Source: Faecousia sp.
GTDB taxonomy: Bacteria > Bacillota > Clostridia > Oscillospirales > Oscillospiraceae
NCBI GenBank assembly: GCA_051867395.1
Contig: JBJDYN010000160.1
Location: 30,253 to 94,252, forward strand
Length of the DNA stretch: 64,000 nt
Direction: 5' to 3'
The translations under genes were made by a program, and so were the position numbers. Positions 3,126-55,733 of the stretch are shown here, in pieces (the stretch's first letter is position 1; every line of letters starts with the position of its first letter). A model generated the notes under the pieces. The model was given only the letters and a program-made list of their open reading frames with translations. It made no database searches and was not told the DNA's origin.

Positions 3126-3371
3126 CACCTCGTGACGATACTCTATCACAAAAATCCGCCCCCGGCACATTCCGGGGACGAACCGTTCAAATCCGGGGAC
3201 GAACTGTAAATCAGTGTGGAGTGTAGAGAGTGGAGTGTGGAGTTATTCTCAGAAAAACCGGCTCCGTACCATCCAACGAAAAAGTGGAAAACGACCCCAT
3301 GGCGGGTGCTACAGGTTACATGGTACGAGGCAAGTTTCCTTTCACACCACTCTCCAAACTCCACTCTCATC

Positions 3372-4034
3372 TCAGCTTTGCGGTATTAGAATCTCTGTAG
3401 TAAAAGCTCCGTCTTCGCTGTTGCGGCTTAAGTAACCGTCCAAGCGCTCAATGATGTTGTCGATGCGCACCAGGCCGAAGCCGTGGCCCTCGCCTTTGGT
3501 GGTCCGGAACCGCTTGCCCACCTTGGGAAGCTTTTTGGCGGCGGTGAAGTTGGTAAAGGAGATGTACAGCTGGGAGCCTTTCATATCCATGTACACCCGG
3601 ATCAGGCGCTGGTCTTCGGGCAGGGCCAGGCTGGCATCGATGGCGTTGTCAAAGAGGTTGCCCAGAATGCAGCACAGGTCCAGCTCCGACATTTTAAGCC
3701 GTACCGGAATGTGGGCATCCACCTGGACGGGGATGCCCTTGGCCTTGGCCAGGGAGATTTTGCTGTTCAGGATCGCGTCCGCCATGGCGTTTCCGGTCTT
3801 CACCACAGTGTCCACGGTATTCAGGTCTGTATCCAGTTCATCCAGGTAGGCCTTGAGACCCTCCAGGTCCCCATTTGCCGCCAGCACCTTCATCATCTGG
3901 ATGTGGTTGCGGTAGTCATGCCGCCAGCCCCGGACCTGCCGGTACATATTTTCCACTTCCTGATAGTGGGTCGCAATCAGCTCCCGCTGGTAGGCGGCAA
4001 GGCGCTTGTCGATCTGTTTGGAAAGGAAGGACAT
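3372..4034 (-). CDS. Soluble GHKL-type sensor histidine kinase (LytTR-partner class), no transmembrane segment
   Basis: 220 aa. H-box WRHDYRNHIQ, N-box ILGNLFDNAIDA, G-box TTKGEGHGFGL. The protein begins directly in a coiled-coil DHp-like helix. AGGAGG lies 7 nt upstream. Confidence 0.8.
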   Translation of the reverse strand: MSFLSKQIDKRLAAYQRELIATHYQEVENMYRQVRGWRHDYRNHIQMMKVLAANGDLEGLKAYLDELDTDLNTVDTVVKTGNAMADAILNSKISLAKAKGIPVQVDAHIPVRLKMSELDLCCILGNLFDNAIDASLALPEDQRLIRVYMDMKGSQLYISFTNFTAAKKLPKVGKRFRTTKGEGHGFGLVRIDNIIERLDGYLSRNSEDGAFTTEILIPQS

Positions 4035-4049
4035 ATTGGGTCCTCCTGA

Positions 4050-4814
4050 TTATGCTATCCTGCAGGCCAGTTCAAAGGCCAGCAAAGCGATTTTCTCCTT
4101 GTCCTCCAGTCTGGCGGTTCCCGACAAGCTTCTGGGATCCCAGGAGGTGTGGTCCAGATTGTCCCCGGCGTAAAGAAAATGAAAAAACTCCACATTTCTG
4201 AAATTGCACATGGCCTGCATAGCGGCACATTCCATCTCTACGCAGACTGCCCCCATTTTCTTCCTGCTTTCAACCTTGGCTTTGGTTTCCCGGTAAAATG
4301 CATCCGTGCTCCAGGTAATGCCTTTGATATAGGGATAGCCAAATTCCTCCAGAACCGAAATAAAATCCTCCACATATTTTGTATTCACATCAATGTAGTC
4401 CCCGGCGGGGGCATAATGGTAGCTGGTGCCTTCGTCACGGATGGCCCTGGTGGGGATAATAATGCCGCAGTCTTTGATGCGCCTGTCCAGCACACCGCAG
4501 TTGCCCAGCAGGATGATCCGTTTTGCGCCCATTGGGATCACATCCTCAAAAGAGCCGACGCAGGCAGGCGCCCCCAATCTGGCTTTATAAAACGCGAAGC
4601 GTTTTCCTTTGTAGGAAACCTCGTACACAGGCCAGATCCCGTCTACATCATGGGTCTGTGCGATGACTTTCCCTCCGAGAAAATTCAGAACAGACGCAAA
4701 TAAATAATGGGAAAAAACGGAAACGACAGTTTCCGGAAAATCAGGTATCGCGTGATGTACCATATCAGGATCGATAATGGCATTTTTCGTTTCATCAAAT
4801 TGTAATAACAGCAT
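4050..4814 (-). CDS. Nucleoside phosphorylase, PNP/UDP-1 superfamily
   Basis: 254 aa. It has GNCGVLD and VEMECAAM motifs typical of uridine/purine nucleoside phosphorylase-like proteins. The gaps to the flanking regulator and kinase genes are 13-15 nt. Confidence 0.75.
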   Translation of the reverse strand: MLLLQFDETKNAIIDPDMVHHAIPDFPETVVSVFSHYLFASVLNFLGGKVIAQTHDVDGIWPVYEVSYKGKRFAFYKARLGAPACVGSFEDVIPMGAKRIILLGNCGVLDRRIKDCGIIIPTRAIRDEGTSYHYAPAGDYIDVNTKYVEDFISVLEEFGYPYIKGITWSTDAFYRETKAKVESRKKMGAVCVEMECAAMQAMCNFRNVEFFHFLYAGDNLDHTSWDPRSLSGTARLEDKEKIALLAFELACRIA

Positions 4815-4827
4815 TCTCTTAACTCCC

Positions 4828-5526
4828 TTATGTTTGCTGAATGATTGCCCGGTTCAGCGGCTCGTAGGCTCCTCTGGGCAGGGGCAGCACCGTGCCATCG
4901 GACAGGTGGACCTCGGTTTTCGTGACCTTCCGGATGAATTTCAGGTTCACGATCAGCCCCCGACCCACCCGGCAGAACCGCTGGTCCAGCTCCTTTTCGA
5001 ATTCGCCCAAAGAGCGCTTGACGGTGTAGTCCCGCTTGCCGTGGATGGTGACGTAATTCTGATGCACGTCCAGATAGCGGATCTCATAGAAGGGAATGCG
5101 CACCAGCTCCCCGTAGGCCTCCAGATTCAGACACCGCTCCTGCTGCATCCGCTTCTCTATAGCCCGGTCCAGGACGGACAGCAGCTTGTCCCGGTTCACA
5201 GGCTTCATCAGGTAATGCAGCGCCGCCACCTCGTACCCCTCCGCGATGTAGTCGGAGTAGCCGGTGATGAAGACGATCTGCACTGCCTCGTTGTCCTGCC
5301 GCACCCGTTTCGCCATGGTCATGCCGTCCATGGCTCCCATTTCGATATCCAGCAGGAGGATGTCAAAGGCCTTGTCCTCAGCGTATCGGAACAGGAAGCT
5401 TTCCGCCGAAGAGAACACTTCCACCTGAATGTCGATCTGACGCTGCTGCGCCCACTGCTCCAGAAGCTCCCGGACAAATTCCGCGTCCTCCCCGCTGTCG
5501 TCACAAATTGCCACCCGGTAGGCCAT
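4828..5526 (-). CDS. LytTR-family response regulator
   Basis: 232 aa. The receiver domain has VAICDD and LLLDIEM (phospho-Asp) motifs. The C-terminal LytTR DNA-binding domain includes IRYLDV...TIH.... Confidence 0.9.
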   Translation of the reverse strand: MAYRVAICDDSGEDAEFVRELLEQWAQQRQIDIQVEVFSSAESFLFRYAEDKAFDILLLDIEMGAMDGMTMAKRVRQDNEAVQIVFITGYSDYIAEGYEVAALHYLMKPVNRDKLLSVLDRAIEKRMQQERCLNLEAYGELVRIPFYEIRYLDVHQNYVTIHGKRDYTVKRSLGEFEKELDQRFCRVGRGLIVNLKFIRKVTKTEVHLSDGTVLPLPRGAYEPLNRAIIQQT

Positions 5527-5546
5527 GGCTTTCCCTCCTTGTTCTC

Positions 5547-6167
5547 TTATTCGCTTTTCATCTCCTCCGCGATCCTGTCCAGCAGCAGCGCTTTGGCGAA
5601 ATACATGGTCTCATAGCGGATATACATCCCGGCATTTTCGTCCCACATCAGCCGCAGGTTCGGCGGGAATTCTTCGTCACCCAGCCACAATTGGAGGGCA
5701 ACAGGCAGCCCGTCGAACATCTCAATGGCATAGGCGATATCCCCATTGGGAAGGGGCTTCCCACCCAGAGCGATGCAGGCCCGGCGAAACCCTTCCTGGT
5801 CTGCCTGGAACGCTTCCGCCCAGGGGTCCCGGGTGCCCTCCAGCAGATTTTGGTGGAACTGCAGTCCGAAGGCTGACATGTTTTTCCACCTGCCGCTGGG
5901 GCGGCGGTCCTCCCGGCTGTCGCAGACCAGATCCAGCAGGGTCATGACCTCCTCATAGCTGTTGGCATCCACCCAGGCCTCGCCATTGAACCGGTCGATA
6001 TCTCCCGTGGTGCGGCGGATTCGGTAGGTTTGGCAAAGCATGGGGACATAGAGAAAATCTTCATCCGCTTTCAGGTTTAATTTTCGGATCAGAGCCTGGG
6101 AATCGTAGGTCAGAAACCGCTGCTTCGCCTGACGTGCCTGGATCAGATAGTTGTTGGTTCGGGCCAT
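5547..6167 (-). CDS. DUF3786-like protein
   Basis: The ORF is trimmed to MARTNNYLIQARQ, with AGGAGG 7 nt upstream. The overall sequence recalls the DUF3786 family, from memory and unverified. It is the first gene of the regulator/PNP/kinase operon. Confidence 0.6.
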   Translation of the reverse strand: MARTNNYLIQARQAKQRFLTYDSQALIRKLNLKADEDFLYVPMLCQTYRIRRTTGDIDRFNGEAWVDANSYEEVMTLLDLVCDSREDRRPSGRWKNMSAFGLQFHQNLLEGTRDPWAEAFQADQEGFRRACIALGGKPLPNGDIAYAIEMFDGLPVALQLWLGDEEFPPNLRLMWDENAGMYIRYETMYFAKALLLDRIAEEMKSE

Positions 6168-6209
6168 GGAAGTGCCTCCTTTTTCGGAAAATTCTGCATT
6201 CACTATACC

Positions 6210-6240
6210 AGCTTCCGTCTGTAAACGCAAGACGGAAGCT
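6210..6240. promoter_or_regulatory. Perfect 11-bp inverted repeat in the divergent promoter region
   Basis: AGCTTCCGTCT-gtaaacgca-AGACGGAAGCT. It overlaps a minus-strand TTGCGT-17-TATAGT promoter candidate for the DUF3786 operon. Confidence 0.4.
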
Positions 6241-6274
6241 TCCGCAGATTGTACAGCTCTGTGTCCGAAAAGGA

Positions 6275-6303
6275 TTGACAACCCGAAAAAAACAGGCTAC
6301 AGT
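6275..6303 (+). promoter_or_regulatory. Sigma-A type promoter of the tetrapyrrole operon
   Basis: TTGACA (6275-6280), 17-nt spacer, TACAGT (6298-6303). Confidence 0.5.
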
Positions 6304-6318
6304 ATACCATAGATTTTA

Positions 6319-6381
6319 CAGCCTGCTCACGGCTTTTCCGCCTTCTCCGGGCAGAAAGCCGCAGGGCTGCTTCTTATTTTC
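6319..6381 (+). terminator. Leader stem-loop plus T-rich tract (possible attenuator) upstream of cbiK
   Basis: CAGCCTGC..CGGCTTT..loop..AAAGCCG CAGGGCTG followed by CTTCTTATTTTC. It starts about 10-15 nt after the predicted transcription start site. Confidence 0.4.
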
Positions 6382-6405
6382 TATGCGGGAAAGGGGACAC
6401 CATCC

Positions 6406-7188
6406 ATGAAAAACGTGATTCTGGCCGTGTCCTTCGGCACCGCCTATCCTGATGCATTGGAGTTGGCGATTTCTCCTACAGAGCAGGCTTTGGCCGCTGC
6501 CTGCCCAGGATGGACCCTGCGCCGGGCGTTTACCAGCGATACCATCCGCCGGAGACTTGCGGAGAAGCGTCTCGCGGTTGACAGCGTATCCCAGGCTATG
6601 GAGCGCTCGGCATCGGAGGGCGTCGCCCAAGTGGCAGTACAGCCCATCTATGTGACCCGGGGTGCCGAATACCAACGGCTCATGGATCAGCTGATATCAT
6701 ACCGGCAGCAGATGCGGATTGCTATGGGGGCGCCCCTCCTGTATACGGATGCGGACTTTGAAACCACTGCGGATGCGCTAATGGAATGGCTGCCGCCGTT
6801 GGAGAAGGAGGAAGCCCTCGTGCTTATGGGCCACGGCGGCGAGGGCTCCGGAAACGCTGCCTATGTCCGGTTGGAACAGGTCTTGCAAAGACGGTGTGAC
6901 AGGCTCTATGTGGCCGCTATGAAGGGAGAACCCACACTGGAAGCAATGAAGCAAACGCTTTCCCATCGGCCGAAGCTCCGGAACCTGATGCTGGCTCCTT
7001 TTCTGCTCACAGCAGGCGGTCATGCCAGGAAAGATTTGGTATCTTGGGAAGCGTCGCTGAGAAACGACGGATATTCGGTGCGCTGCGTCCATCGGGGACT
7101 TGGGGAATGTCCCCGGATAAGGGAATTGTTTGCTGCCCACTGTCTGGCGGCTGTGAAAACGCTGGATCATGAAGGAGGAAATCCATGA
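6406..7188 (+). CDS. cbiK: Sirohydrochlorin cobaltochelatase (CbiK type)
   Basis: 260 aa. It starts MKNVILAVSFGTAYP... and has an LVLMGHGGEG histidine motif. Its stop overlaps the hemA start (ATGA). Confidence 0.75.
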   Translation: MKNVILAVSFGTAYPDALELAISPTEQALAAACPGWTLRRAFTSDTIRRRLAEKRLAVDSVSQAMERSASEGVAQVAVQPIYVTRGAEYQRLMDQLISYRQQMRIAMGAPLLYTDADFETTADALMEWLPPLEKEEALVLMGHGGEGSGNAAYVRLEQVLQRRCDRLYVAAMKGEPTLEAMKQTLSHRPKLRNLMLAPFLLTAGGHARKDLVSWEASLRNDGYSVRCVHRGLGECPRIRELFAAHCLAAVKTLDHEGGNP

Positions 7189-8603
7189 ATCTAATCATGT
7201 CCGGCCTGGACTGCCACCGGGCGGCTATCGATTTGCGGGAACGTCTGGCCTTTTCCAGACAGCGTGTACTGGAACTTCTGGCCTGGCTCCGGCAGCAGCC
7301 GGGGGTGGAAGGGTGCGTGCTGCTGTCCACCTGTAACCGGACGGAGCTGTATGTAACCGGGTCCGCCCAGACCCCCTGGCGGCTGCTGTGCCATGGGGCA
7401 GGAGTGACGGAGACGGAGCTGGAACCCTATTTCACCACCCGCTGTGGAGAGGACGCAGCAAACCACCTGCTGGAGGTGGCCTGCGGGCTACATTCCCAGA
7501 TTCTGGGGGAGGACCAGATCATTACCCAGGTGCGCACCGCCATGGAGCTGGCCCAGGAGGCGAAAACCGCAGACCCCACCCTATCCGCCCTGTTCCGCAG
7601 GGCCGTCACCGCCGGGAAACGGGCCAGGACGGAGGTCACTGTGACCCGGGGCACCCCCTCCATGGGAAAGCGCTGCCAGGAGCTTCTGACCCAGGAGCTG
7701 GGTTCCTTGCCGGGAAAACGGATTCTGGTGGTGGGCAATGGGCAGATGGGCCGTCTTGCGGCGGAACTTCTGCAGCAGTCCGGGGCGCAGGTCCAGGTGA
7801 CTCTGCGCAGCTACCGCCATGGTGAAACGGTGGTTCCCGCCGGGTGCTCCGTAGTGGCCTTTGAAGACCGAATAAAAGCATTGGAGGGACTGGATGCTCT
7901 GGTTTCGGCAACGTCCAGTCCTCACTATACACTGACTTTGGCACAGCTGGAAACTGTAGCCAATCCTCCCAAGGTGGCCGTGGATCTGGCGGTGCCCAGG
8001 GACATTGACCCGGCCTGCGCCTGCCGTTTCCGGTGCTACGACACGGATGCCCTGGGCACTGGCGGCCCGGGCAGCCCGGAGGAATTGACGCAGATGCGCA
8101 CCATCGTCCGGGAGGAACTGGACAAGTTCCATAAATGGCAGCAGCGGCAGGCCGTATCGGATTGCGCGCCCCGGTTCCCGTTGTTTTTGAACCTCACCGG
8201 GAAAACCGTGGTACTGATTGGCGGCGGGAACATCGCGGCCCGGAGAATTGGCACCCTGCGGCTGTTCGGCTGTCAGATAAAAGTGATCGCCCCGGAGCTG
8301 AAATGCAAAGCTGACGGGCTCACCTGGCTCCGGCGGCCCTACCAGCCAGGAGATCTGGAAGGGGCCTTTCTCGCCATCGCCGCCACCGCAGACCGGCAGG
8401 TGAATCACGCGGTGTGGGAGGAAGCGTCTGGCAGGGGCATCCCCATATCCGTGGCAGACTGTGAAGCGGAGTGCAGCTTCTACTTCCCCGCCATCTGTGC
8501 AGGGGAGGACCTGATCGCGGGAGTGGTATCCACTGGAAAGGACCACCACAAAACCGCTCGGGCGGCAAAAGAAATCCGCCGGGTATTGGAGGAACTGGAA
8601 TGA
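7185..8603 (+). CDS. hemA: Glutamyl-tRNA reductase fused to a precorrin-2 dehydrogenase (SirC/Met8-like) domain
   Basis: The N-terminal ~325 aa is HemA (LLSTCNRTELYV, VVGNGQMGRLAA). The C-terminal ~145 aa is a SirC-like Rossmann domain (FLNLTGKTVVLIGGGNIAARR...). Confidence 0.85.
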   Translation: MNLIMSGLDCHRAAIDLRERLAFSRQRVLELLAWLRQQPGVEGCVLLSTCNRTELYVTGSAQTPWRLLCHGAGVTETELEPYFTTRCGEDAANHLLEVACGLHSQILGEDQIITQVRTAMELAQEAKTADPTLSALFRRAVTAGKRARTEVTVTRGTPSMGKRCQELLTQELGSLPGKRILVVGNGQMGRLAAELLQQSGAQVQVTLRSYRHGETVVPAGCSVVAFEDRIKALEGLDALVSATSSPHYTLTLAQLETVANPPKVAVDLAVPRDIDPACACRFRCYDTDALGTGGPGSPEELTQMRTIVREELDKFHKWQQRQAVSDCAPRFPLFLNLTGKTVVLIGGGNIAARRIGTLRLFGCQIKVIAPELKCKADGLTWLRRPYQPGDLEGAFLAIAATADRQVNHAVWEEASGRGIPISVADCEAECSFYFPAICAGEDLIAGVVSTGKDHHKTARAAKEIRRVLEELE

Positions 8604-23770: not shown

Positions 23771-23819
23771 GTACAAACGATGGCGTTTGCACGTCGAATA
23801 GGCCTGTTGCGATGGTAAT

Positions 23820-23860
23820 GGTTTTCTGCCCACAGTCCTGCGGACTGTGGGCAGAAAACC
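23820..23860. terminator. Perfect 19-bp hairpin
   Basis: GGTTTTCTGCCCACAGTCC-tgc-GGACTGTGGGCAGAAAACC, downstream of the 23228 gene. There is no strong T tract. Confidence 0.4.
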
Positions 23861-23932
23861 AAGGACTCTCCCACGGACTAAAAAAAGTGCCCACCGGACA
23901 CTTTTTTACCTCGGCTTCGCCTCGGCTGCCCT

Positions 23933-24015
23933 TTCGAGTCCCATTATCCACCCCATAAAAAATACCTGAGGCAAAGCCTCAGGTATTTTTTATGGGGTGG
24001 ATAATGGGACTCGAA
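23933..24015. repeat. 40-bp perfect inverted repeat (3-nt loop) covering the terminator and the last 23 nt of tRNA-His
   Basis: Base-by-base pairing of 23933-23972 with 24015-23976 shows no mismatch. The pairing breaks at 23932/24016. Confidence 0.9.
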
Positions 24016-24070
24016 CCCACGATCTTCAGAGCCACAATCTGACGCCTTAGCCAACTAGGCCATATCCACC
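23993..24070 (-). tRNA. tRNA-His (GTG), CCA encoded
   Basis: Cloverleaf read by hand. It has G-1, anticodon stem TCAGA/TCTGA, loop TTGTGGC, T-loop GGTTCGAGTCC and 3' end ACCCCA. Confidence 0.9.
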
Positions 24071-25180: not shown

Positions 25181-25282
25181 AATGCTGAATGCAGAACGCA
25201 AAATGATGAATGAAGGTATCCCCCTTGGGGATGAATTAAAACAAATCCCGAAGGGATACCGTAATTCAGCATTTATCATTCG
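25181..25282. repeat. Heptamer-armed hairpin element E (dialect AATGCTG)
   Basis: Left array AATGCTG AATGCAG AACGCAA AATGATG AATGAAG. Right array ..AATTCAGCATTTATCATTCG. The core has ATCCCCCTTGGGGAT and ATCCCGAAGGGAT hairpins. The right arm overlaps the rluD stop. Confidence 0.7.
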
Positions 25283-26663: not shown

Positions 26664-26724
26664 AGGAACATCCTCCTGAAGACGTGCAACTCATTATACC
26701 ATGGCGCGGACGGAAAAGTCAATT

Positions 26725-26824
26725 GGGAGTGAGGAGTTAGGAGAGTGGAGTTAAGGAATCCCTTCGGGATAAATATTAAATAGGAAATGGAGCAATAAAA
26801 TGTCTGCTCTCCTCACTCCTAACT
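26725..26824. repeat. Heptamer-armed hairpin element D (dialect GAGTGAG/GAGTGGA)
   Basis: Left array GAGTGAG GAGTTAG GAGAGTG GAGTTAA. Right array CTCTCCTCACTCCTAACT. The core starts with the ATCCCTTCGGGAT hairpin. Confidence 0.7.
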
Positions 26825-26876
26825 GAATAAAAAACCCGCCCCGAGTATTCCCAGGACGGTGCTACTAGAGCCATAT

Positions 26877-30461: not shown

Positions 30462-30467
30462 GGGAAT

Positions 30468-30625
30468 GTGAAGAGTGGAGAGTTGAGAGTGGAGTTGGGC
30501 TGCGGACTTTCTGCACAGCAAAAAGTTCTGGTCGTTTCTATGGTAAGATGTGCACACAGATGGCCCAATGTTTTTCTTTCTGAAATCAACTCCACACTCC
30601 ACACTCCACCCTTCACACTCCACAC
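30468..30625. repeat. Heptamer-armed hairpin element B (dialect GTGGAGA/GTGGAGT)
   Basis: Left array GTGAAGA GTGGAGA GTTGAGA GTGGAGT T. Right array AACTCCA CACTCCA CACTCCA CCCTTCA CACTCCA CAC. The core is 91 nt. The inner 8 bp of the arms pair perfectly. Confidence 0.8.
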
Positions 30626-30640
30626 TGAAAAGAGGGTTTT

Positions 30641-31576
30641 ATGAAGCATCTGTTCATCATCAATCCCGCAGCGGGGAGTCGGAACCGAACGGCGGACTAT
30701 ACTGCCGCCATCCGGGAGACTTGCGGCAGCCGGGGGCTGGACTACCGGATCGAGGTGTCTCAGGCACCGGGGGAGTGCCGGCGGCTTGCCCGGGAAGCGG
30801 CCCAGGCCGGAGAAGATGTGCGTATCTATGCCTGCGGCGGCGACGGTACCCTGAACGAAGTGGCTTCAGGAGCGGCGGGGTTTGACAATGCGGCGGTGAC
30901 GGTGCTGTCCGGCGGCAGCGGCAATGATTTTGTCCGGATTTTCAGCGATCCCAAGGCTTTCTTTGATCTGGAGCGGCTGATGGATGCCGAGGAGATCACC
31001 CTGGATTTGATCCGCTGCAATGAGGACTTCGCCCTGAATATATGCTCTGTGGGACTGGACGCCCGGATCGGCACCGATGTGGCCCGGTATAAGCGGCTGC
31101 CGCTGCTGGACGGCTTCCGGGCCTATGCCGCGTCCACGGTGGTGAATGTGATCCGGGGTATTGGGGAGCACTACATAGTGGAAATCGACGGCCAACAGAT
31201 CGACGGGGAGCAAACCTTCGTCTGCGTCTGCAACGGGCGGTACTACGGCGGCGGCTTTAATCCCGTGCCGGAGGCGGATCCCACGGACGGTTCGCTGGAT
31301 GTGCTGCTGGTCAAGAAGGTTCGCCGGCTACAGGTTCCCGCTATCATCGGGAAATATAAGAACGGACGATACCGGGAATTGCCGGAGCTGATCCGCTATT
31401 TTAAGACGGACCGCCTGAAGATTACCTGTGACAGACCCAATGCCATCAACCTGGACGGGGAACTGCGGACGGCGCAGACCATGGACATTTTCGTCGCCAA
31501 AGAAAAGCTCCGCTTCTTCTACCCAAAGGGATTGACATGGAAGGCGAGAGTAGAAATGCAGAATGCTAAATGCTGA
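30641..31576 (+). CDS. YegS/DagK-family lipid kinase
   Basis: 311 aa with a GGDGT motif (ACGGDGTLNEV). The last 7 codons and the stop lie inside heptamer array F. Confidence 0.85.
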   Translation: MKHLFIINPAAGSRNRTADYTAAIRETCGSRGLDYRIEVSQAPGECRRLAREAAQAGEDVRIYACGGDGTLNEVASGAAGFDNAAVTVLSGGSGNDFVRIFSDPKAFFDLERLMDAEEITLDLIRCNEDFALNICSVGLDARIGTDVARYKRLPLLDGFRAYAASTVVNVIRGIGEHYIVEIDGQQIDGEQTFVCVCNGRYYGGGFNPVPEADPTDGSLDVLLVKKVRRLQVPAIIGKYKNGRYRELPELIRYFKTDRLKITCDRPNAINLDGELRTAQTMDIFVAKEKLRFFYPKGLTWKARVEMQNAKC

Positions 31577-31599
31577 ATGCAGAATGCAAGGGCTTTGCA
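31554..31599. repeat. Heptamer array F (dialect AATGCAG/AATGCTA), a solo arm with a small hairpin
   Basis: AAATGCA GAATGCT AAATGCT GAATGCA GAATGCA AGGGCTTTGCAT. Confidence 0.65.
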
Positions 31600-34600: not shown

Positions 34601-34775
34601 TAAGAAAAAGTACCGCATTGCAATCCGTCATGATGCAATGCGGTACGTTCCGTTTTCCTCATATCCGCATCTTTCCCTCCGACGGTATTAACCGTATCAG
34701 GTTCACGGGTCAGGACTACGGAGTCCAATCTCAGCCGGATGCGTCCGGCCCCCCGAAGATTGCTGTGCGATCTGA
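34601..34775 (-). promoter_or_regulatory. TPP (THI-box) riboswitch with terminator
   Basis: The reverse strand reads GGGGGGCCGGACGCATCCGGCTGAGA...ACCCGTGAACCTGATACGGTTAATACCGTCGGAGGGAAAG. The terminator follows: GTACCGCATTGCA...TGCAATGCGGTAC TTTTTCTT (34601-34646). Confidence 0.85.
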
Positions 34776-35742: not shown

Positions 35743-36020
35743 AGAGTGGAGTGTGGAGCGTTGAGAGTGGCGTTACCGAAGCTTTTGCTGCAGCGCATTT
35801 TACCGCACATAGTCGGACGACGGAGGAAGTCGCCCTCTTTCGTCTGGCATTTTACATGGAAATGCATCGCAGCAAACATTTGGCGTAACTATTCAGTCAC
35901 GGCAAAATATGCGCGGTAAATGATCGTTTATATGAGAAACTTGGGGTACGACGGAATAGTTACCATTTGGCAACTTCACTCTCCACACTCCACACTTCAC
36001 TTCACTCCACTCCACTCTCC
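35743..36020. repeat. Heptamer-armed hairpin element C (dialect AGAGTGG/AGTGTGG), composite 197-nt core
   Basis: Left array AGAGTGG AGTGTGG AGCGTTG AGAGTGG CGTT. The right array has 7 units of CTCTCCA/CACTCCA type. The core contains TAAATGATCGTTTAT (35917-35931), which is also found at 44328-44342. Confidence 0.75.
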
Positions 36021-36183
36021 GCTCTGACGCGAACTCCCCACTTTTTTGAACGCGTCTTTAATTTTTCTTGAATTCTCCCGGAAGGGCTGGAAGTTTTCCG
36101 ATTGCTGTGCTATAATGTGCGCAAGTATAAAGTGCGATAGTATACCTAGGCGGCACAAGCCTGTTTGAAATGGAGAGAGAGCT

Positions 36184-38267: not shown

Positions 38268-38681
38268 AATGCTGAATGCTGAATGCTAAATGAGAGAGTT
38301 ATGGATGGAAATGCTGTTGTAGAAAAAAGCATCGAATTTGCGGTGCGAATTGTGAATTTGTATAAATATCTGACGAGAGAGCACAAAGAATATGTCCTTT
38401 CAAAGCAACTTTTAAGCAGCGGGACGAGTATTGGTGCAAACATTGCCGAAGCGCAACGAGGTCAAAGCAAAGCAGATTTCCTTGCGAAAATGAGCATTGC
38501 GCTCAAAGAAGCGAACGAAACGCATTATTGGCTGACACTGTTGTATAGAACAGACTATTTGCGAAAAGCGCAGTATGAAAGTCTGGATCAGGATGTTTCC
38601 GAACTGTTGAGCATCCTGACAGCCATATGTAAAACTGCAAAACCAGTATAATTCAGCATTTAGCATTTAGCATTCAGCATT
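38268..38681. repeat. Heptamer-armed element H carrying a four-helix-bundle gene (IVS-like cassette)
   Basis: Left array AATGCTG AATGCTG AATGCTA AATG (38268-38292). Right array AATT CAGCATT TAGCATT TAGCATT CAGCATT (38650-38681). The arms pair over ~25 bp with 1 mismatch. Confidence 0.85.
38301..38651 (+). CDS. Four-helix-bundle protein (23S rRNA intervening-sequence protein / Avd-like family)
   Basis: MDGNAVVEKSIEFAVRIVNLYKYL...SKQLLSSGTSIGANIAEAQRGQSKADFLAKMSIALKEANETHYWL. The track start at 38283 lies inside the repeat array. The stop codon lies in the right arm. Confidence 0.85.
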   Translation: MDGNAVVEKSIEFAVRIVNLYKYLTREHKEYVLSKQLLSSGTSIGANIAEAQRGQSKADFLAKMSIALKEANETHYWLTLLYRTDYLRKAQYESLDQDVSELLSILTAICKTAKPV

Positions 38682-44323: not shown

Positions 44324-44514
44324 CTGATAAATGATCGTTTATTGCAGCACCTACCGTTTGAAAACGCACCTAACGTAGGGCTTATGGCTGTCCCACGCCA
44401 GCGAGAAAATGCCCGTATTCGCTTCGGTACCGGCGAATTCGCGACTGCCTACTGCACGGCGGGGGCAAGCCCCCGCCCTACGGTTGGTGCAAACGTAAGC
44501 GATCATTTATTGAG
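44324..44514. mobile_element. MITE-like element with imperfect ~28-nt terminal inverted repeats
   Basis: The left end is CTGATAAATGATCGTTTATTGCAGCACC. The reverse complement of the right end is CTCAATAAATGATCGCTTACGTTTGCACC. Internal hairpins include GGCGGGGGC-aa-GCCCCCGCC. The right end supplies the stop of the 44503 gene. Confidence 0.35.
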
Positions 44515-47713: not shown

Positions 47714-48401
47714 AACCAGCGCCAAGGCTGCGTCCGTGGCGCTGACGGAGGACGGAAAACTGCTGGGAGAGAGCTACCAGAATACCGGACTGACCCATAG
47801 TCAGACGTTGTTGGTCATGGCAGAGGGACTTCTGAAGCAGTGCGGGAAAACGGTTCGGGAGGTTACCGCTGTGGCGGTGGCGGAGGGCCCCGGCTCTTTT
47901 ACCGGCGTCCGCATCGGGGTGGCGGCGGCCAAGGGGTTCGCCTGGGGCGGGGAGCTGCCCTGCTGCGGTGTTTCCACCCTGGAAGCCATGGTGGAAACAC
48001 TGGGGACCTACCAGGGCTATGTCTGCCCCTGCATGGATGCCCGGAGAAGCCAGGTGTACAACGCTTTGTTTTATGTAAACCAGGGAAAGCGGGAACGGCT
48101 CCGGGAGGACCGGGCCATTGCGCTGGCAGACCTGGCAGAAGAATTGAAGACACTAAAAGGACCCATCTTCCTGGTGGGCGACGGCTGCGTGCTTGCCTAC
48201 CGCACGCTGTCCGCAGACATTCCCAACCTGATCCTGCCGCCGGAGCATAGAATGCATCAACGGGCTGTGGGCGTGGCGCTGTTGGCGGAGCAAAAGCTTG
48301 CCGCCGGAGAGCCGGGAGACGGCAATGCGCTGATCCCCAACTATCTTCGCCTGAGCCAGGCGGAACGGGAACGGATGGAAAAAATGAGGGCGGTAAATTG
48401 A
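47694..48401 (+). CDS. tsaB: tRNA t6A biosynthesis protein TsaB
   Basis: TTG start giving (M)LILAFETSAKAASVAL, with GGAGGGG 6-8 nt upstream. It overlaps the tsaE 3' end. Confidence 0.8.
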   Translation: MLILAFETSAKAASVALTEDGKLLGESYQNTGLTHSQTLLVMAEGLLKQCGKTVREVTAVAVAEGPGSFTGVRIGVAAAKGFAWGGELPCCGVSTLEAMVETLGTYQGYVCPCMDARRSQVYNALFYVNQGKRERLREDRAIALADLAEELKTLKGPIFLVGDGCVLAYRTLSADIPNLILPPEHRMHQRAVGVALLAEQKLAAGEPGDGNALIPNYLRLSQAERERMEKMRAVN

Positions 48402-48434
48402 AAATGGAAAGCACCCATCGCTTTTCACTTCCAA
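48395..48434. repeat. Possible miniature heptamer hairpin (dialect AAATTGA/AAATGGA)
   Basis: AAATTGA AAATGGA AAGC..GCTTTTCACTTCCAA. The pairing is imperfect. It overlaps the tsaB stop codon. Confidence 0.3.
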
Positions 48435-49900: not shown

Positions 49901-50593
49901 TTATAGGGTTCGCAGGGCGTCCACCAGGGCGGTCTTCCCGGTGGTCTTCTCGTCCTTGATCTTGATGACCTTGGCGGGACAGCCGGCCACCACGGTGTTG
50001 GGGGCCACATCGCCAACCACAATAGCCCCGGCGGCCACCACGGCGTCATGCCCGATGCGGCAGCCCTCGATGATCACGGCGTTAGCCCCGATGAGCACGT
50101 TGTCCTCCACGATAACAGGGGTAGCGGAGGCGGGCTCTACGACACCGGCCAGCACTGCCCCGGCGCCCACATGGCAGTTCTTGCCCACAGTGGCCCGGCC
50201 ACCCAGGACAGCGCCCATGTCGATCATGGTGCCCTCGCCCACCACGGCGCCGATGTTCAGGATGGCCCCCATCATAATGACGGCGTTTTTTCCGATCTCC
50301 ACCTGCTCCCGGATGATGGCGCCCGGCTCAATGCGGGCGGGGATATTCTTCAGGTCCAGCATAGGAATGGCGGAATTGCGGCAGTTGTTTTCGATTTCGA
50401 TATGGGTAAATTCGTTGGCCTCCAGCACGGAAGCCACGTCCTTCCAGTCGCCGAAGACGATTTTGCAGCCCTCTCCAGCGGGGAATTCCCGGCAGTTGGG
50501 GAAGGAGACCGGGGCCTTTTCCCAGACGTAGACCTTCACGGGGGTCTTCTTTTCCGAGGTGCGGATGTACTCTATTATTTCCTGTGCGTTCAT
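49901..50593 (-). CDS. dapH: Tetrahydrodipicolinate N-acetyltransferase (DapH type)
   Basis: The ORF is trimmed to [13 protein letters not shown]. It has a left-handed beta-helix with hexapeptide repeats. Confidence 0.9.
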
Positions 50594-50725
50594 TTCTGTT
50601 CGCTCCTTGTTGATTTTATGATTGTCTATCCTACCATCTTTTGGCCGGAAACACAAGCGGGAAATTGACACTGGGCAGAATTCCGAGTATAATGGGGCTG
50701 AATTTTTAGACGGGAGGGCAAGTTT

Positions 50726-51814
50726 ATGCAGATCTGCGAGGACCGTCGGGCGCTGCACCGAATTCCGGAGCTGGACCGGGAGTTGCCGGAGACCATGGCG
50801 TATCTAAAAAACGCTTTGACAGGACTGAACTGCGTCCTTTTCACGCCCATGGAAGGATCCCTGTGCGCTTGGTTCGATTACAACCGACCAGATGCCATTG
50901 CGTTCCGGGCGGATGCCGACGCCCTGCCCATTGCGGAGCGTACCGGAGCGGAATACGCTTCCCGGCACGAAGGCAGAATGCACGCCTGCGGCCACGACGG
51001 GCACATGGCCATTCTCTTGGAGCTGGCCCGGCGGCTGAACGAAAAAAAGGACCTGCCTCACAACGTGCTGCTGGTGTTCCAGCCGGCGGAGGAGACCACA
51101 GGCGGCGCCAGAGACCTTTGCGAAACCGGCGTGTTTGAACAGCACCATGTTAAAGCCGTCTTCGGCCTGCACTTGTGGCCGGGACTTCCCGCCGGGGAGA
51201 TTGCCAGCCGAAAAAACGAGTTGATGGCCCGTTCCTGCGAGGTCACGGTGGATATCTACGGAAAATCTGCCCACATTGCCAAAGCCGCTGAAGGGATCGA
51301 CGCACTGATGGCCGGGGTGGAATTCTATCAGAAAGCATATGCCATGGAGCGGGCACTGCCGGATGGAATCTTCCGGCTTCTGAAATTCGGAAAGTTTCAA
51401 AGCGGCACCGTCCGCAATGCGTTGTCTGCCCATACCCATTTGGAGGGCTCTCTGCGGGCCTTTCAGGTCGATGTGTTTGTATCCCTCCAAAACGGGCTGC
51501 GGGCCATCGGCAGGGAATTGGAAGAAATCTGCGGCTGCAGAGTGAACGTCCATATGAACGACGGCTACCCTGCGGTTATGAACCCGCCCGACTTGTACGA
51601 AGCTGTCCGTGCCTGCGTAGCGTTTACCCCCTTGGATGCGCCCTGCATGACGGCGGAGGATTTCTCCTGGTACCAGCGGCGGCTTCCCGGCATGTTCTTC
51701 TTCCTGGGCGTGGGCGATACCCCGGCCCTCCACGCGGATACCTTCGATTTTGACGAATCCATTTTATTGAAAGGTGCGGACTTTTTTGAGGGTCTGGCGG
51801 AGCGATTTTTATGA
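50726..51814 (+). CDS. M20-family amidohydrolase, probable N-acetyldiaminopimelate deacetylase
   Basis: 362 aa with HACGHDGH and QPAEE motifs. It is divergent from dapH. Confidence 0.75.
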
Positions 51815-52944
51815 TCCCATTGAATCAAAATTTATCTTCCCTAAAGCGCAGCGCCATCCGGGTGTATACCAATCTGGCCCGGCAGATCCCGGACTGCGCC
51901 ATGCTGACCATCGGCGAGCCGGATCTGGACACGCCGGAGGCCATCAAAGCCGCTGCTGTGGCGGCATTACATGCCAATCAGACCCACTATGCCCCCAACC
52001 AGGGCACCCATAAATTGCGGGAAGCGGTGGCGGCTTTCGAGACAGCCCGGGGGCATATGACCGCGCCGGACCAGGTGCTGATTACCGTGGGGGCCTGCCA
52101 GGCATTGTTCACGGCCCTTTTCGGCATCCTGAATCCCGGAGAGGAGATCATTGTTCCGACTCCCGGTTTTGGCCTGTATGAGACCATCGCCACCATTGCC
52201 GGGGCCAAAACGGTGCATCTGGACGTGACAAAGACGGATTTCCAAATCACTTTGGAAGCGTTGAACGCCGCCATCACGCCCAAGACCAAGGCCATTGTCC
52301 TGAACTCTCCCTGCAATCCCACCGGCGTGGTGTTTTCCCGGGAGAGCCTGGCGGCGGTGAAGGAGGCGGTGCTGGGAAAGCCTATTTTTGTCATTAGCGA
52401 CAATGTCTACGGCCAGCTCTCCTACTGTGGACCCTGCCCGGATTTGAGTCTGGACCTGGAGTTGCAGGACAAGCTGATCCTGTGCCAGAGTTTTTCCAAA
52501 CCCTACGCCATGACCGGCTGGCGGGTGGGCTACCTGACCTGCCCGGAGTATGTTATGGACCGGCTGCTGCTGTTAAGCGCCGCCGAGATCACGGCGGTGC
52601 CCACCTTCGTGCAGGAGGCTGCTGTCACCGCTCTGGAAACGGATGTTTCTTCCATGCGGGAGATCTATGCGGGACGCCGGGACTATGTCTGCACCCGGCT
52701 GCGGGGAATGGGGCTGGACTTCCCGGAACCGCAGGGCGCTTTCTATGTGTTCCCCCGGATCGCCCAGTTCGGTATGGACTCCGCAACTTTCTGTACCCGG
52801 ATGATTCAGGAGGGCAAGGTCGCCGCCGTCCCCGGAAGCTGCTTCGGCTCCGATGCATACATCCGCCTGTCCTACTGCTACAGTGATGAAGAGCTGAAAA
52901 AAGGTCTGGATCGGCTGGAAGCGTTTCTTCGTACCCTATCCTAA
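51811..52944 (+). CDS. Class I/II aminotransferase (candidate N-acetyl-DAP aminotransferase)
   Basis: 377 aa. The PLP-lysine motif is SFSKPYAMTGWRVGY. ATGA overlap with the deacetylase gene. Confidence 0.8.
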   Translation: MIPLNQNLSSLKRSAIRVYTNLARQIPDCAMLTIGEPDLDTPEAIKAAAVAALHANQTHYAPNQGTHKLREAVAAFETARGHMTAPDQVLITVGACQALFTALFGILNPGEEIIVPTPGFGLYETIATIAGAKTVHLDVTKTDFQITLEALNAAITPKTKAIVLNSPCNPTGVVFSRESLAAVKEAVLGKPIFVISDNVYGQLSYCGPCPDLSLDLELQDKLILCQSFSKPYAMTGWRVGYLTCPEYVMDRLLLLSAAEITAVPTFVQEAAVTALETDVSSMREIYAGRRDYVCTRLRGMGLDFPEPQGAFYVFPRIAQFGMDSATFCTRMIQEGKVAAVPGSCFGSDAYIRLSYCYSDEELKKGLDRLEAFLRTLS

Positions 52945-52990
52945 AAAGGCTGTCTCTCATGATTTTCGGGAATCATGAGGGACAGCCTTT
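52945..52990. terminator. Bidirectional terminator between convergent genes
   Basis: AAAGGCTGTCTCTCATGATT-ttcggg-AATCATGAGGGACAGCCTTT. Confidence 0.65.
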
Positions 52991-53002
52991 GGTTATGCAC
53001 TT

Positions 53003-53536
53003 TTACCGGTTTACAACCTTGACCTGGAATCCTTCCAGCACATCCAGTACCTTTTCGTGCAGTGTTTTGTCAAAGGAATCCGTACACGCTGCGTCCACCA
53101 GGATCGTGGCCTCCGGGTAGCGGCTTTGCAATACCACAGCGTTGCTGACCACGCAAATGTTGCTGACCAGGCCCACCAGCTCGATCTCATCGGCCTGTTC
53201 CGGCAGCACCGCGGAGGTGGCGGGATCGGTGACATCCATGCCGAAGGACAGCTTGTCGATGGCCGGGGCCTCCACCTCTGCCAAAGCCTGGGCGGTCTGT
53301 CCGTAGACCTGCCAGCCCTGGGAGTCCTTGACGCAGTGGATAACCGGAAGATTGCGGCCCTCCCGGGTGTCCAGGTAGTTTTCGAAATGGGTGTCCCGGG
53401 TGAAAAGCACATGGCCCTTGCCGTAGGCGCGGACCTTGGCGGCAATCTTGGCATCCAGCTTCTCCGCACCGGGGAAGCCCAAGGCACCGTCAACAAAGTC
53501 GTTCTGATAGTCGATGACGAACAAATATCGGTTCAT
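53003..53536 (-). CDS. Isochorismatase-family hydrolase (nicotinamidase-like)
   Basis: The ORF is trimmed to MNRYLFVIDYQNDF. The catalytic Cys region is LVSNICV. Confidence 0.8.
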   Translation of the reverse strand: MNRYLFVIDYQNDFVDGALGFPGAEKLDAKIAAKVRAYGKGHVLFTRDTHFENYLDTREGRNLPVIHCVKDSQGWQVYGQTAQALAEVEAPAIDKLSFGMDVTDPATSAVLPEQADEIELVGLVSNICVVSNAVVLQSRYPEATILVDAACTDSFDKTLHEKVLDVLEGFQVKVVNR

Positions 53537-53658
53537 AGGCTGACCTCCACAAATTTGATACTGCAAACATATCAAAATTGCAAGAAAAAGTCAACGAAGC
53601 ATTGCAAGAAGCGTCGGAATTTGCTAAAATAGAACAAACCAATTTTTCGGGTGAGAGC

Positions 53659-54423
53659 ATGACAAAACAGGATTACATTGCCGTCTTCGACTCCGGCGTA
53701 GGCGGAATCAGCGTACTGCGGCACCTGCGGCGGTGGATGCCGGGAGAGCGGTATTTATACTTTGGAGACTCGGCCAATGCCCCTTACGGCTCCCGGCCCA
53801 CGGAAGAAGTCCGGGACCTGACCATGGCGGCGGCGGAAAAGCTGATAACGGAATACCCCGTCAAAGCCCTGGTTCTTGCCTGCAACACGGCCACCGCGGC
53901 GGCGGTGAAAGAGCTGCGGGAAATCTATCCGGAGCGCATTATCATCGGTATCGAGCCTGCCTTAAAGCTGGCGGCGGATCATTTCCCAGGCGGCAGGGTG
54001 GGGGTCATGGCCACGGAAGTGACACTGCGGGAGGAGAAGTTCGACAGTCTGCTCCACCGCTTTGATGAGAACTGCTCTGTCGCCAAGATTCCCGCGCCGG
54101 GACTGGTGGAGCTGATCGAACAGGGCCGGGCGGGAGCGCCGGAGACGGAGGAGTTGCTGCGGCGCATTCTGACGCCTTACATTGGAAAGCTGGACGCCCT
54201 GGTGCTGGGCTGCACCCACTATCCCTTTGCCGCCGGGGCCATTTCCCGGGTGCTGGGCAGCGGTGTCACGTTACTGGACGGCGGCGAAGGTACGGCCCGG
54301 GAGACCCGGCGGCGGCTGGAAGCGGCGGATCTGCTGGAAAACGGGGACGGGGAAGTGGTTATCACCAACAGCCGGGACGATCCGGAGATAATCCGGCTTT
54401 CCTATCAACTACTGAATGGATGA
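53659..54423 (+). CDS. murI: Glutamate racemase
   Basis: The ORF is trimmed to MTKQDYIAVFDSGVGG. ACNTA and GCTHYP motifs are present. Confidence 0.9.
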   Translation: MTKQDYIAVFDSGVGGISVLRHLRRWMPGERYLYFGDSANAPYGSRPTEEVRDLTMAAAEKLITEYPVKALVLACNTATAAAVKELREIYPERIIIGIEPALKLAADHFPGGRVGVMATEVTLREEKFDSLLHRFDENCSVAKIPAPGLVELIEQGRAGAPETEELLRRILTPYIGKLDALVLGCTHYPFAAGAISRVLGSGVTLLDGGEGTARETRRRLEAADLLENGDGEVVITNSRDDPEIIRLSYQLLNG

Positions 54424-54435
54424 GGGAGACAGCTT

Positions 54436-55059
54436 ATGGAAAATGATGTTCTTGTGATCGGCATCGCCGGAGGCACCGGCAGCGGAAAAACCACGCTGAT
54501 GCGGCGACTTATCGAGAAATTTGAAGATGAGGTTACGGTTTTAAGTCACGACAATTACTACAAGCGCCATGATGATCTGTCCTACGAGCAGCGGTGTTTG
54601 CTGAACTACGACGAACCTGCCGCTTTCGATACCAGTCTGATGGTGTACCATCTGGAGGAGCTGCGCCGGGGGCATTCCATTGCGTGTCCGGTGTACGATT
54701 TCACGGTCCACAACCGCAGTGACGAGACCATCCATGTGGTTCCCAAAAAGGTCATCATCGTGGAGGGCATCTTGATTTTTGAGAATGAAGCTTTGCGCAA
54801 TCTGATGGACATCCGGATCTATGTGGACACCGATGCCGATGTCCGGCTGTGCCGCAGAATTAAGCGGGATGTGAACAAACGGGGCCGAACTCTGGAAAGC
54901 GTACTGACCCAGTATCAGGAGACTGTGAAACCCATGCACGAGCAGTATGTGGAGCCCAGCAAGAAGTATGCCGACATCGTGGTCCCGGAGGGCGGTAAGA
55001 ATGTGGTGGCCCTGGACATGATTATGGGCTGCATCCAGCGGCATCTGGAGGCAAAATGA
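54436..55059 (+). CDS. udk: Uridine kinase
   Basis: 207 aa with P-loop GGTGSGKTT. Confidence 0.95.
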   Translation: MENDVLVIGIAGGTGSGKTTLMRRLIEKFEDEVTVLSHDNYYKRHDDLSYEQRCLLNYDEPAAFDTSLMVYHLEELRRGHSIACPVYDFTVHNRSDETIHVVPKKVIIVEGILIFENEALRNLMDIRIYVDTDADVRLCRRIKRDVNKRGRTLESVLTQYQETVKPMHEQYVEPSKKYADIVVPEGGKNVVALDMIMGCIQRHLEAK

Positions 55060-55679
55060 AATACGAAAGCCTGATTTTTGACATTGACGGCACCCTGTGG
55101 GACTCCCGGGCCCTGGCGGCGGAGGGGTACAATATCCAACTGAAGCAGGAAGGGCTGGATCACCTGTGCGTGGACGCGGAGACCCTGAAATCTCTCTTTG
55201 GTAAGGTTATGGCGGAGATTGCGGATCAGCTCTTCGCTTCCATTCCAAAGGAGGAACGCTACAGCCTGATGGAGCGGTGCATGGCCACGGAGAACCGGCA
55301 TCTGCGGGAAGGCCCCTGCAAGATCGGCTATCCTAAGGTCAGGCAGACCATTGCTGAGCTGGCGAAAAGTCATCGGCTCTTTCTTGTCAGCAACAGCCAG
55401 CGGGGCTACCCGGAGCTGTGTATCAGCAAGCTGGGGTTGACACCGTATATCGAAAGCCACCTGTGCTTCGGCGATACCGGCACCAGCAAGGGACAGACCA
55501 TCCGAACCCTGATGGAGCGGTACAGGGTCGATAGCTGTGCCTACATTGGTGATACCCAGGGCGATTACGAGGCTGCCCAGGAGGCAGGGGTTCCCTTTAT
55601 CTGGGCGGCTTACGGATTTGGAACGCCGGAAGGATACGCTGAAAGGATCGAACAATTTGAAGATCTGCTGAAATTGTAA
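55056..55679 (+). CDS. HAD-IA hydrolase (phosphatase)
   Basis: 207 aa with motif I FDIDGTLWDS. ATGA overlap with udk. Its last codons lie in heptamer array G. Confidence 0.8.
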   Translation: MKYESLIFDIDGTLWDSRALAAEGYNIQLKQEGLDHLCVDAETLKSLFGKVMAEIADQLFASIPKEERYSLMERCMATENRHLREGPCKIGYPKVRQTIAELAKSHRLFLVSNSQRGYPELCISKLGLTPYIESHLCFGDTGTSKGQTIRTLMERYRVDSCAYIGDTQGDYEAAQEAGVPFIWAAYGFGTPEGYAERIEQFEDLLKL

Positions 55680-55733
55680 TTGAAAATTGAAAATGGAAAA
55701 TTGTAAATGATTTCCGTATCAATTTTTGAATTT
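55670..55733. repeat. Heptamer-armed mini hairpin G (dialect AATTGAA/AATGGAA)
   Basis: AAATTGT AATTGAA AATTGAA AATGGAA AATTGTA AATGATT ..TCAATTTTTGAATTT. Confidence 0.55.

Follow-up and report, generated by a model that had tools for sequence, protein, structure and literature searches.

Inverted heptamer arrays at gene boundaries and around a four-helix-bundle gene in a Faecousia genome segment

A 64,000-nt stretch of the genome of a Faecousia species (Oscillospiraceae; Clostridia), which we call the window, carries a series of intergenic hairpins whose arms are tandem arrays of 7-nt units, with a run of one type on one side of a core and a run of the reverse-complement type on the other. 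What sort of element do these loci represent, and do they have relatives among the repeats and mobile elements already described? A sequence-only reading, in which a model saw the letters and a list of open reading frames, had noticed them and recognized no known family. We find that the heptamer-armed hairpins are one interspersed intergenic family with co-varying arms, and that one of them encloses a gene whose four-helix-bundle (4HB) product belongs with the intervening-sequence (IVS) proteins of 23S rRNA. The explanation that we favour, and hold to be somewhat likelier right than wrong, is that the loci belong to a single mobile family of palindromic, IVS-type cassettes, each with 3–7 heptamers, a variable core and a reverse-complement run, and that the family includes gene-less miniatures.

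A gene-bearing cassette among period-7 arrays

Tandem Repeats Finder placed period-7 arrays at 3213–3243, 26726–26751, 30468–30494, 30589–30626, 31555–31588, 35743–35770, 35973–36025, 38268–38292, 38651–38681 and 55678–55708. When the window was scanned at a single threshold, period 7 gave five arrays and each other period from 4 to 12 gave none or one; at a looser threshold (16 of 21 matches) there were nine period-7 arrays, whereas 100 dinucleotide-preserving shuffles of the window gave 0.02 on average and one at most. An inverted-repeat search paired arrays across their cores: 30463–30497 with 30587–30621 (35 nt, 86% complementary), 35745–35780 with 35966–36001 (36 nt, 81%), 38268–38292 with 38657–38681 (25 nt, 96%), 3226–3242 with 3352–3368 (17 nt, 94%) and 26719–26736 with 26809–26826 (18 nt, 89%). 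The locus at 25181–25282 folds as a nested hairpin. The sequence-only reading had described at least nine intergenic loci with mirrored heptamer arrays, whose arms could pair in several registers as long imperfect stems; the observation is confirmed, most arrays forming inverted pairs.

Every window copy lies at a gene boundary, as judged from Pfam annotation of the flanking open reading frames. This placement had also been proposed from the letters. Two arrays, we find, reach over the last codons and the stop of the upstream gene (the DAGK-type stop codon at 31574–31576 and the RluD-type stop codon at 25276–25278). An Rfam scan of the window matched three tRNAs and a thiamine pyrophosphate (TPP) riboswitch; it revealed no rRNA, and no hairpin reached a gathering score, so that the hairpins have no family match there.

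The copy at 38268–38681 has a core of about 360 nt, which the sequence-only reading had not recognized as a gene. The core is in fact a 4HB gene (PF05635, TIGR02436), and the cassette consists of the following parts, the arms having no assigned strand.

38268–38292: 5′ arm, AATGCTG AATGCTG AATGCTA AATG, leading into the ribosome-binding site (RBS; GAGAGAG) of the 4HB gene
38301–38651, + strand: cargo gene for a 116-aa 4HB protein (PF05635/TIGR02436, the family of 23S rRNA intervening-sequence proteins)
38651–38681: 3′ arm of four units, TTCAGCA TTTAGCA TTTAGCA TTCAGCATT, beginning at the 4HB stop codon

The arms therefore bracket the gene exactly, from RBS through stop codon. The product matches PF05635 (E = 1.2e-30), TIGR02436 (four helix bundle protein; E = 3.4e-33) and the crystal structure PDB 2RLD (E = 5.9e-42), an entry with five chains, and more than 8000 candidate homologues scored significantly when the 116-aa protein was used as the query. 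Searches of PADLOC and PHROGs returned no match for it that would indicate membership of a defence system or phage family. The cassette is flanked, all on the same strand, by a peptidase U32 gene on one side and maf-mreC-mreD-PBP2 on the other.

In metagenome genomes of related Oscillospiraceae, homologues about 80% identical to the 4HB protein are found at this U32|Maf position. The arms of these orthologues differ yet remain complementary; the window has AATGCTG/CAGCATT, for example, where L011 has AATGCAA/TTGCATT (L numbers are the labels of fetched comparison loci). Non-synonymous divergence (dN) among the orthologues is 0.13–0.19 and synonymous divergence (dS) is saturated; hence the 4HB protein is under purifying selection, and the cassette is old at this site.

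Relatives of the cassette in other genomes

One genome per GTDB species was scanned for relatives of the 4HB gene, at least 550 were found, and the best 80, mostly from Oscillospiraceae, Faecousia and Acutalibacteraceae genomes, were kept. Period-7 arrays lay on both sides of the gene in 60 of these 80 loci and on at least one side in 75. When the consensus unit of each 5′ array was compared with the reverse-complemented 3′ unit of its own locus, 6.28 of 7 positions agreed, as against 5.31 across loci, and none of 5000 permutations reached the own-locus value; the complementary co-variation that the sequence-only reading had made a touchstone is thus present. Six of the loci lie at U32|Maf, and the other 74 span at least 56 flank contexts (at least 57 in all), so that the cassette has many insertion contexts and has been mobile over evolutionary time. 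The dialect of the arms, that is, the type of unit, correlates with protein similarity (Mantel r = 0.23, a value reached by none of 999 permutations), which indicates that the arms travel with the gene and the two are inherited jointly.

The 682 kb of relative loci contained 238 period-7 arrays, compared with 24 of period 6, 2 of period 8 and 3 of period 9. Most period-7 arrays (152 of 238) lay within 140 nt of a 4HB gene; the remaining 86 amount to 1.26 per 10 kb, equal to the density in the window, and nearly all fall outside long open reading frames. Stems in 69 related loci had a median length of 31 bp and were about 91% Watson–Crick. At least 13 cassettes share one orientation, with the 3′ arm ending near a tRNA gene; in L017, where the distance was measured, the gap is about 8 nt. 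Such a gap would leave no room for a promoter, which favours a model in which the element is handled as RNA.

Some further features of these loci may be recorded here. Cassettes lie directly 5′ of tRNA genes (tRNA-Leu, by eye) in many species, as in L017, L021, L029 and L036 (about 3900–4470), and four loci have, upstream of the cassette, an 18–29-nt copy of the tRNA start that, by reading, ends in the D-loop or the anticodon loop. Several metagenome contigs (L002–L006; L003 at 3351–3417) stop about 70–270 nt past the 4HB gene (L002–L004) or start some 145 nt upstream of it (L005, L006), and one runs into unrelated sequence beyond the 3′ array. Because these contigs end near the arms, the arrays appear to break or mis-join short-read assemblies.

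The association extends to other phyla. A translated search of plasmids gave 34 records, of which 16 were fetched (Cyanobacteriota, Bacteroidota, Spirochaetota, Chloroflexota and Bacillota), and inverted heptamer arrays bracket the 4HB gene in about 15 of the 16. Examples of the arms are (TTAGTGA)x17 / TCACTAA in Bernardetia, GTCGGAG / CTCCGAC in Nostoc punctiforme, AATCCCC + AATCGTA / ACGATTT + GGGATTT in Planktothrix and (CAATTCG)x4 / (TTGCGAA)x4 in Nostoc flagelliforme; the Treponema arrays CTCTCCA/CTCTCCG resemble the window dialect GAGTGGA/GTGTGGA. The Leptolyngbya locus has complementary purine- and pyrimidine-rich flanks that fall below the threshold, and the Calothrix and Chondrinema arrays either are weaker or stand at some distance from the 4HB gene. 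In a control region, 50 kb of N. punctiforme pNPUN01 with 35 genes, six of the eight arrays bracket its two 4HB genes. Among 4HB homologues on viral contigs, arrays stood on both sides in 9 of 18, and one of these loci has GAGTTAG/TAACTCC arms like those at 26719–26826 of the window. The loose ARTGNNR pattern that the sequence-only reading had drawn from the window units describes this lineage loosely but does not hold in other phyla.

Two observations concern individual loci of this set. In the viral contig L126 (1400–1950) the arm units are 8 nt long, AATTTGTA / AATTTACA, instead of 7, which means that the period is not absolutely fixed. Several plasmid cassettes lie in defence loci (L097, L099, L100, L102, L103, L105 and L107), in the cas2/cas1 interval or beside cas1; further placements of this kind on plasmids are hsdS|hsdR, DrmD|PglX, helicase|N6-methylase and DUF1156|Swt1-HEPN.

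Gene-less hairpins and their turnover

The remaining window copies, none with an assigned strand, are as follows.

3213–3368: gene-less hairpin, GAGTGGA/GTGTGGA arms at 3213–3244 and 3343–3368, core of about 98 nt
25181–25282: gene-less hairpin, AATGCTG-type arms at 25181–25216 and 25259–25282, with a small inner hairpin at 25245–25257
26719–26826: gene-less hairpin, GGAGTGA/GGAGTTA arms
30463–30626: gene-less hairpin, 35-nt arms and an 89-nt core, with RlmL-type and DAGK-type genes (+ strand) on either side
31553–31591: solo 5′ arm, AATGCAG AATGCTA AATGCTG AATGCAG AATGCAA, overlapping the DAGK-type stop codon
35743–36020: gene-less hairpin, arms at 35743–35780 and 35966–36020, core of about 190 nt
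48395–48434: degenerate remnant where TsaD and UPRTase genes meet (TsaD|UPRTase), with two units and part of a complement
55671–55733: short hairpin, AATTGAA/AATGGAA x5 facing about two TTCAATT-type units (55719–55733)

The first hairpin is flanked by genes for a GHKL kinase and an ABC ATPase, each encoded on the − strand. The second separates RluD-type and HAD genes (− strand), its right arm containing the RluD-type stop codon. The third is flanked by an intrinsic terminator (26836–26859, −) and the lspA promoter (26693–26722, −), the hairpin at 35743–36020 by divergent Sm_multidrug_ex and peptidase U32 genes, and the last by HAD_2 and DUF386 genes. Two of the copies are weaker: the right arm at 55719–55733 has only about two units, and the copy at 48395–48434 is a degenerate remnant.

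We read the gene-less hairpins best as miniatures or remnants of the 4HB cassette family. We place them there because their dialects are known around 4HB genes elsewhere, their layout is the same, gene-less pairs co-occur with gene-bearing cassettes, and their turnover is the same. Thus L035 and L047 contain full elements of the AATTGAA/AATGGAA dialect, while in L093 and L114 arrays of this dialect stand beside a 4HB gene, and in other genomes gene-less array pairs with cores of 3–282 nt stand beside gene-bearing cassettes.

Turnover was examined in contigs of a relative about 92–96% identical to the window, and the presence/absence polymorphism at orthologous sites that the sequence-only reading had looked to is evident there. 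The RluD|HAD site is empty in the close strain, and the window element at this site provides a new stop codon and a new RBS. Upstream of lspA the close strain has a hairpin with other units and an unrelated core, with near-identical immediate flanks in a block of about 96% identity. At the Sm_multidrug_ex|U32 site it has kept the arms around an unrelated core of 105 nt (190 nt in the window), with flanks about 92% identical, and the arrays at this site differ by one unit between close-relative contigs. The 3′ arm of the 4HB cassette likewise has five units in the close strain and four in the window. Presence or absence, core replacement and unit-number change thus all occur between close strains.

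The solo arm that the sequence-only reading gave as 31554–31589 has no partner here, whereas L012, from a related species, has both arms at the orthologous site, 2163–2204 / 2210–2242, with a 5-nt loop. At the TsaD|UPRTase site, where the window has a remnant, arrays are clear in both L012 and L013. Among more distant species these intergenic sites either lack an element or contain other palindromic ones. One different inverted-repeat element lies in the window itself, at 44327–44510, with 31-nt arms ATAAATGATCGTTTAT... and an inner GGCGGGGGCAAGCCCCCGCC; in L012, GGGCGGGGTCATGACCCCGCC palindromic elements resembling it occupy two heptamer-hairpin sites (about 7560–7760 and about 880–1240). With other palindromes at heptamer-hairpin sites, such sites look like hot spots for several hairpin families. 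No cassette was inverted in 80 locus pairs with shared flanks, and flanking direct repeats were not above chance length, save for the partial tRNA duplications.

A small hairpin just inside one arm is common to three gene-less elements of different dialects, at 26745–26775 (+), 25240–25270 (−) and L001 (about 600–630). Its motif is GA(G/A)TTANGG(A/T)ATCC..TTCG..GGAT, with one compensatory stem change, ATCCC/GGGAT versus ATCCAC/GTGGAT. We dropped a strand bias of UUCG/GNRA tetraloops in such inner hairpins as evidence, since cases are too few and a triloop is the better reading for those of the window.

Three other features of the window stand apart from the heptamer family. At 23933–24015 a perfect 40+40-nt palindrome is made of the terminator hairpin that follows tRNA-His (23993–24069, −) and then an inverted copy of about the last 24 nt of this tRNA; a second perfect palindrome, of 20 nt, lies 100 nt away at 23819–23861. 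The whole could be an integration-site remnant. The TPP riboswitch (34657–34765, −) lies 5′ of a Thia_YuaJ-type thiamine transporter gene, as judged by synteny with L012, and is an ordinary feature.

Known systems and competing explanations

The presence of a 4HB gene in the cassette ties the hairpin family to 23S rRNA intervening sequences. In Coxiella burnetii, the 23S IVS contains an S23p open reading frame of the PF05635 family, its ends form a 28-bp stem, and it is cut by RNase III in vitro (PMC4990558). Two to three tandem GACAGAT heptamers and a degenerate one stand right before the start codon, their number is strain-dependent, and RNase III makes its 5′ cut where the first heptamer begins (PMC4990558). 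S23p-type IVSs (C. burnetii, Leptospira) thus have in common with our cassette the protein family, an open reading frame in the loop of an inverted-repeat stem, and tandem heptamers of strain-variable number before the start codon; the rRNA element is regarded as selfish. The locus at 38268–38681 has the PF05635/TIGR02436 loop open reading frame and an enclosing stem of at least 20 bp, but lies between peptidase U32 and maf, whereas the rRNA IVSs lie in helix 45 of 23S rRNA; by location, therefore, it is not a member of the IVS family in the strict sense. Its relatives occupy tRNA leaders, operon spacers and defence operons, and most window copies, unlike S23p IVSs, have no open reading frame. 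RNase III cutting has been demonstrated for the rRNA IVS, and we infer it for the window copies.

A second likeness is to the short tandemly repeated repetitive (STRR) and TAACTGA repeats, which are also tandem 7-nt units, intergenic, often just 5′ of start codons, variable in number and found in many variants. The unit sequences of STRRs presumably differ from those of the window. TAACTGA and other heptamer direct repeats have been described in Beggiatoaceae, Cyanobacteria and Bacteroidetes, with no gene or mechanism of spread given; they were proposed to be sites of the protein-binding or translation-control type, and are still unexplained (MacGregor, 2015; PMC4679880). STRRs are also reported to occur inside cyanobacterial RNase P RNA genes (Vioque, 1997). 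Both kinds have been described as direct repeats without a partner array or associated gene, but in the cyanobacterial and Bacteroidota plasmid loci that we fetched, STRR/TAACTGA-like arrays do bracket 4HB genes. The window units are of AATGCTG, GAGTGGA and AATTGAA types rather than TAACTGA, and the host is a member of the Oscillospiraceae (Clostridia).

Other classes resemble the hairpins in part. Repetitive extragenic palindromes and bacterial interspersed mosaic elements (REP/BIME) and miniature inverted-repeat transposable elements (MITEs; Correia, RUP, BOX, ERIC) are likewise small, interspersed, intergenic, palindromic, strain-polymorphic and tolerant of transcription. Each such family has one conserved unit or core, however (REP with the RAYT transposase), whereas the window copies have only the array organization in common. 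The three dialects, the unique cores and the lack of a shared palindrome unit rule out REP/BIME, and unique cores without regular target-site duplication rule out MITEs. The arrays are not CRISPRs, which have 24–48-nt repeats and spacers, since their units are 7 nt long and contiguous and the two arrays are inverted. Nor are the hairpins intrinsic terminators: no heptamer stem was called as one, no U tract follows, and separate terminators lie beside two of the stems. Integron attC cassettes and invertons are similar in being single promoterless genes or short segments with imperfect inverted-repeat hairpin bounds and exchangeable contents; unlike them, the present elements have no integrase or invertase, carry tandem-array repeats at both ends, form no cassette arrays and showed no flipped configuration in the 80 shared-flank pairs, which speaks against an inverton. 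The accessory variability determinant, Avd, of diversity-generating retroelements has a homologous 4HB fold (PMC10053308). The window protein was rejected as an Avd (NF033474, 25 bits, far under the cutoff of 80), and no reverse transcriptase adjoins the cassette, whose neighbours are peptidase U32 and maf, though template and variable repeats were not searched for.

The sequence-only reading was therefore right to keep the hairpins apart from REP/BIME, CRISPR, classical MITEs and the Rfam families, as the core, duplication and Rfam tests agree; its failure to recognize any family stands for these classes, but relatives do exist in the 23S IVSs, the STRRs and TAACTGA. In the literature searched, which excluded subscription journals, only the Coxiella paper links the protein family to heptamers, and we found no general description of a gene with inverted arrays. 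The hairpins thus have known relatives, and the general repeat–gene–repeat package is apparently new to the searched literature.

How might an IVS-type cassette family work? We suggest that in a transcribed copy the arms would pair into a double-stranded RNA stem of 20–35 bp, and that this stem would be cut by RNase III, by analogy with the homologous rRNA intervening sequences. The insert would then be removed from rRNA, tRNA leaders or operon spacers with the flanking genes unharmed, and such harmless removal would let the family spread and persist. Slippage, together with arm-to-arm template switching or conversion, may maintain the complementarity of the arms. Movement and core exchange may take place at the DNA level, by array-to-array recombination or through a trans-acting factor, and the 4HB protein probably acts on the nucleic acid of its own element.

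Several observations weigh against this explanation. Mismatches in the stems were G.U in 47 cases and A.C in 41, and without a significant excess of G.U nothing specifically indicates sense RNA; the energy gap between sense and antisense duplexes is also small (48 versus 32 loci). In favour of the RNA model, the upstream neighbour points the same way as the 4HB gene in 65 of 77 loci, although neighbouring genes in Firmicutes are mostly co-oriented already, so the baseline is high. Two window copies lie outside obvious transcripts, one in a terminator/promoter gap (26719–26826) and one between divergent genes (35743–36020). Core replacement must be a DNA event, which speaks against a purely RNA-based view. 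No transposase or integrase was found with the elements, nor any regular target duplication. Finally, the gene-less cores are mutually unrelated and each is unique, both within the window and across the fetched loci (with one exception, two copies in the L088 genome that have a common subterminal sequence), and a six-frame profile search of the window turned up the intact 4HB gene alone, with no remnant in other cores. The membership of the gene-less copies hence rests on arm type, position and behaviour.

Some of these points would suit an element that acts mainly in DNA, with the arrays as recombination substrates or cruciform/hairpin sites at which cores, including the 4HB gene, are inserted, replaced or deleted, the RNA stem being incidental. 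Cores have been replaced at the same point between flanks that stay about 92% (Sm_mdr|U32) to 96% (lspA) identical, a close strain has a clean empty site, some copies lie outside transcription units, the stems have no G.U bias, metagenome contigs often break at the arms, and other palindromic elements use the same intergenic sites in related species. We nevertheless think this explanation rather unlikely. No recombinase or transposase gene accompanies the elements, there is no regular target duplication, no cassette is inverted in the 80 shared-flank pairs, and the widely differing arm sequences among copies argue against one site-specific enzyme; action in DNA also leaves it unexplained that RNase III cuts the homologous elements in rRNA.

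If instead the arrays were protein binding sites, with one unit for each subunit of a ring-forming 4HB protein or of a cold-shock/S1-type single-strand binder, they might control the translation or stability of neighbouring genes, as was proposed for the TAACTGA repeats (MacGregor, 2015; PMC4679880). The arrays do abut RBSs and start codons, the 4HB protein is conserved, the crystallized homologue 2RLD has five chains in its entry, and dialect similarity follows protein similarity. That correlation fits co-inheritance equally well, however, and proteins 65–80% identical are flanked by units as distinct as AATGCAG, AGTGCTG, AATGCGG and CAGTGCA; three gene-less dialects occur in 64 kb with one 4HB gene, and simple sites need neither strict inverted pairing nor arm co-variation, so that we consider this role improbable. 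We are just as sceptical that the arrays are functionless by-products of slippage and palindrome correction, at most REP-like mRNA stabilizers or terminators, which became linked to the 4HB gene by an accident of history. Unit numbers do vary among strains, copies decay into solo arms and remnants, and the cores have nothing in common. Against this stand the strong preference for period 7 (238 arrays compared with 2–24 for periods 6, 8 and 9), a gene–array link in five phyla, arms that persist and co-vary at one site among species with saturated synonymous sites, and stems that no U tracts follow.

Beyond the IVS-type family that we favour, we put forward a wider idea tentatively, with more doubt than confidence. 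Inverted heptamer arrays and the 4HB gene may together constitute a distinct, pan-bacterial class of mobile cassette, in which a ring-shaped protein would recognize the units of its own arms and drive maintenance, excision or exchange; STRRs, TAACTGA repeats, 23S IVSs with an open reading frame and gene-less hairpins would then be forms or footprints of one system. To our knowledge, the heptamer repeats of cyanobacteria have gone unexplained since 1990. PF05635/TIGR02436 is a very large family with solved structures, in which only the Avd of diversity-generating retroelements has been assigned a function. The finding could therefore connect the 4HB family, the cyanobacterial and other heptamer repeats, and the rRNA intervening sequences that bear open reading frames. 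On the practical side, the arms appear to break metagenome assemblies and offer hypervariable strain markers. If the single cassette system is real, each of its components can be tested by simple experiments; it would represent a type of mobile element without a recognizable transposase, and would account for the presence of small 4HB genes inside operons, tRNA leaders and defence loci that they do not disrupt.

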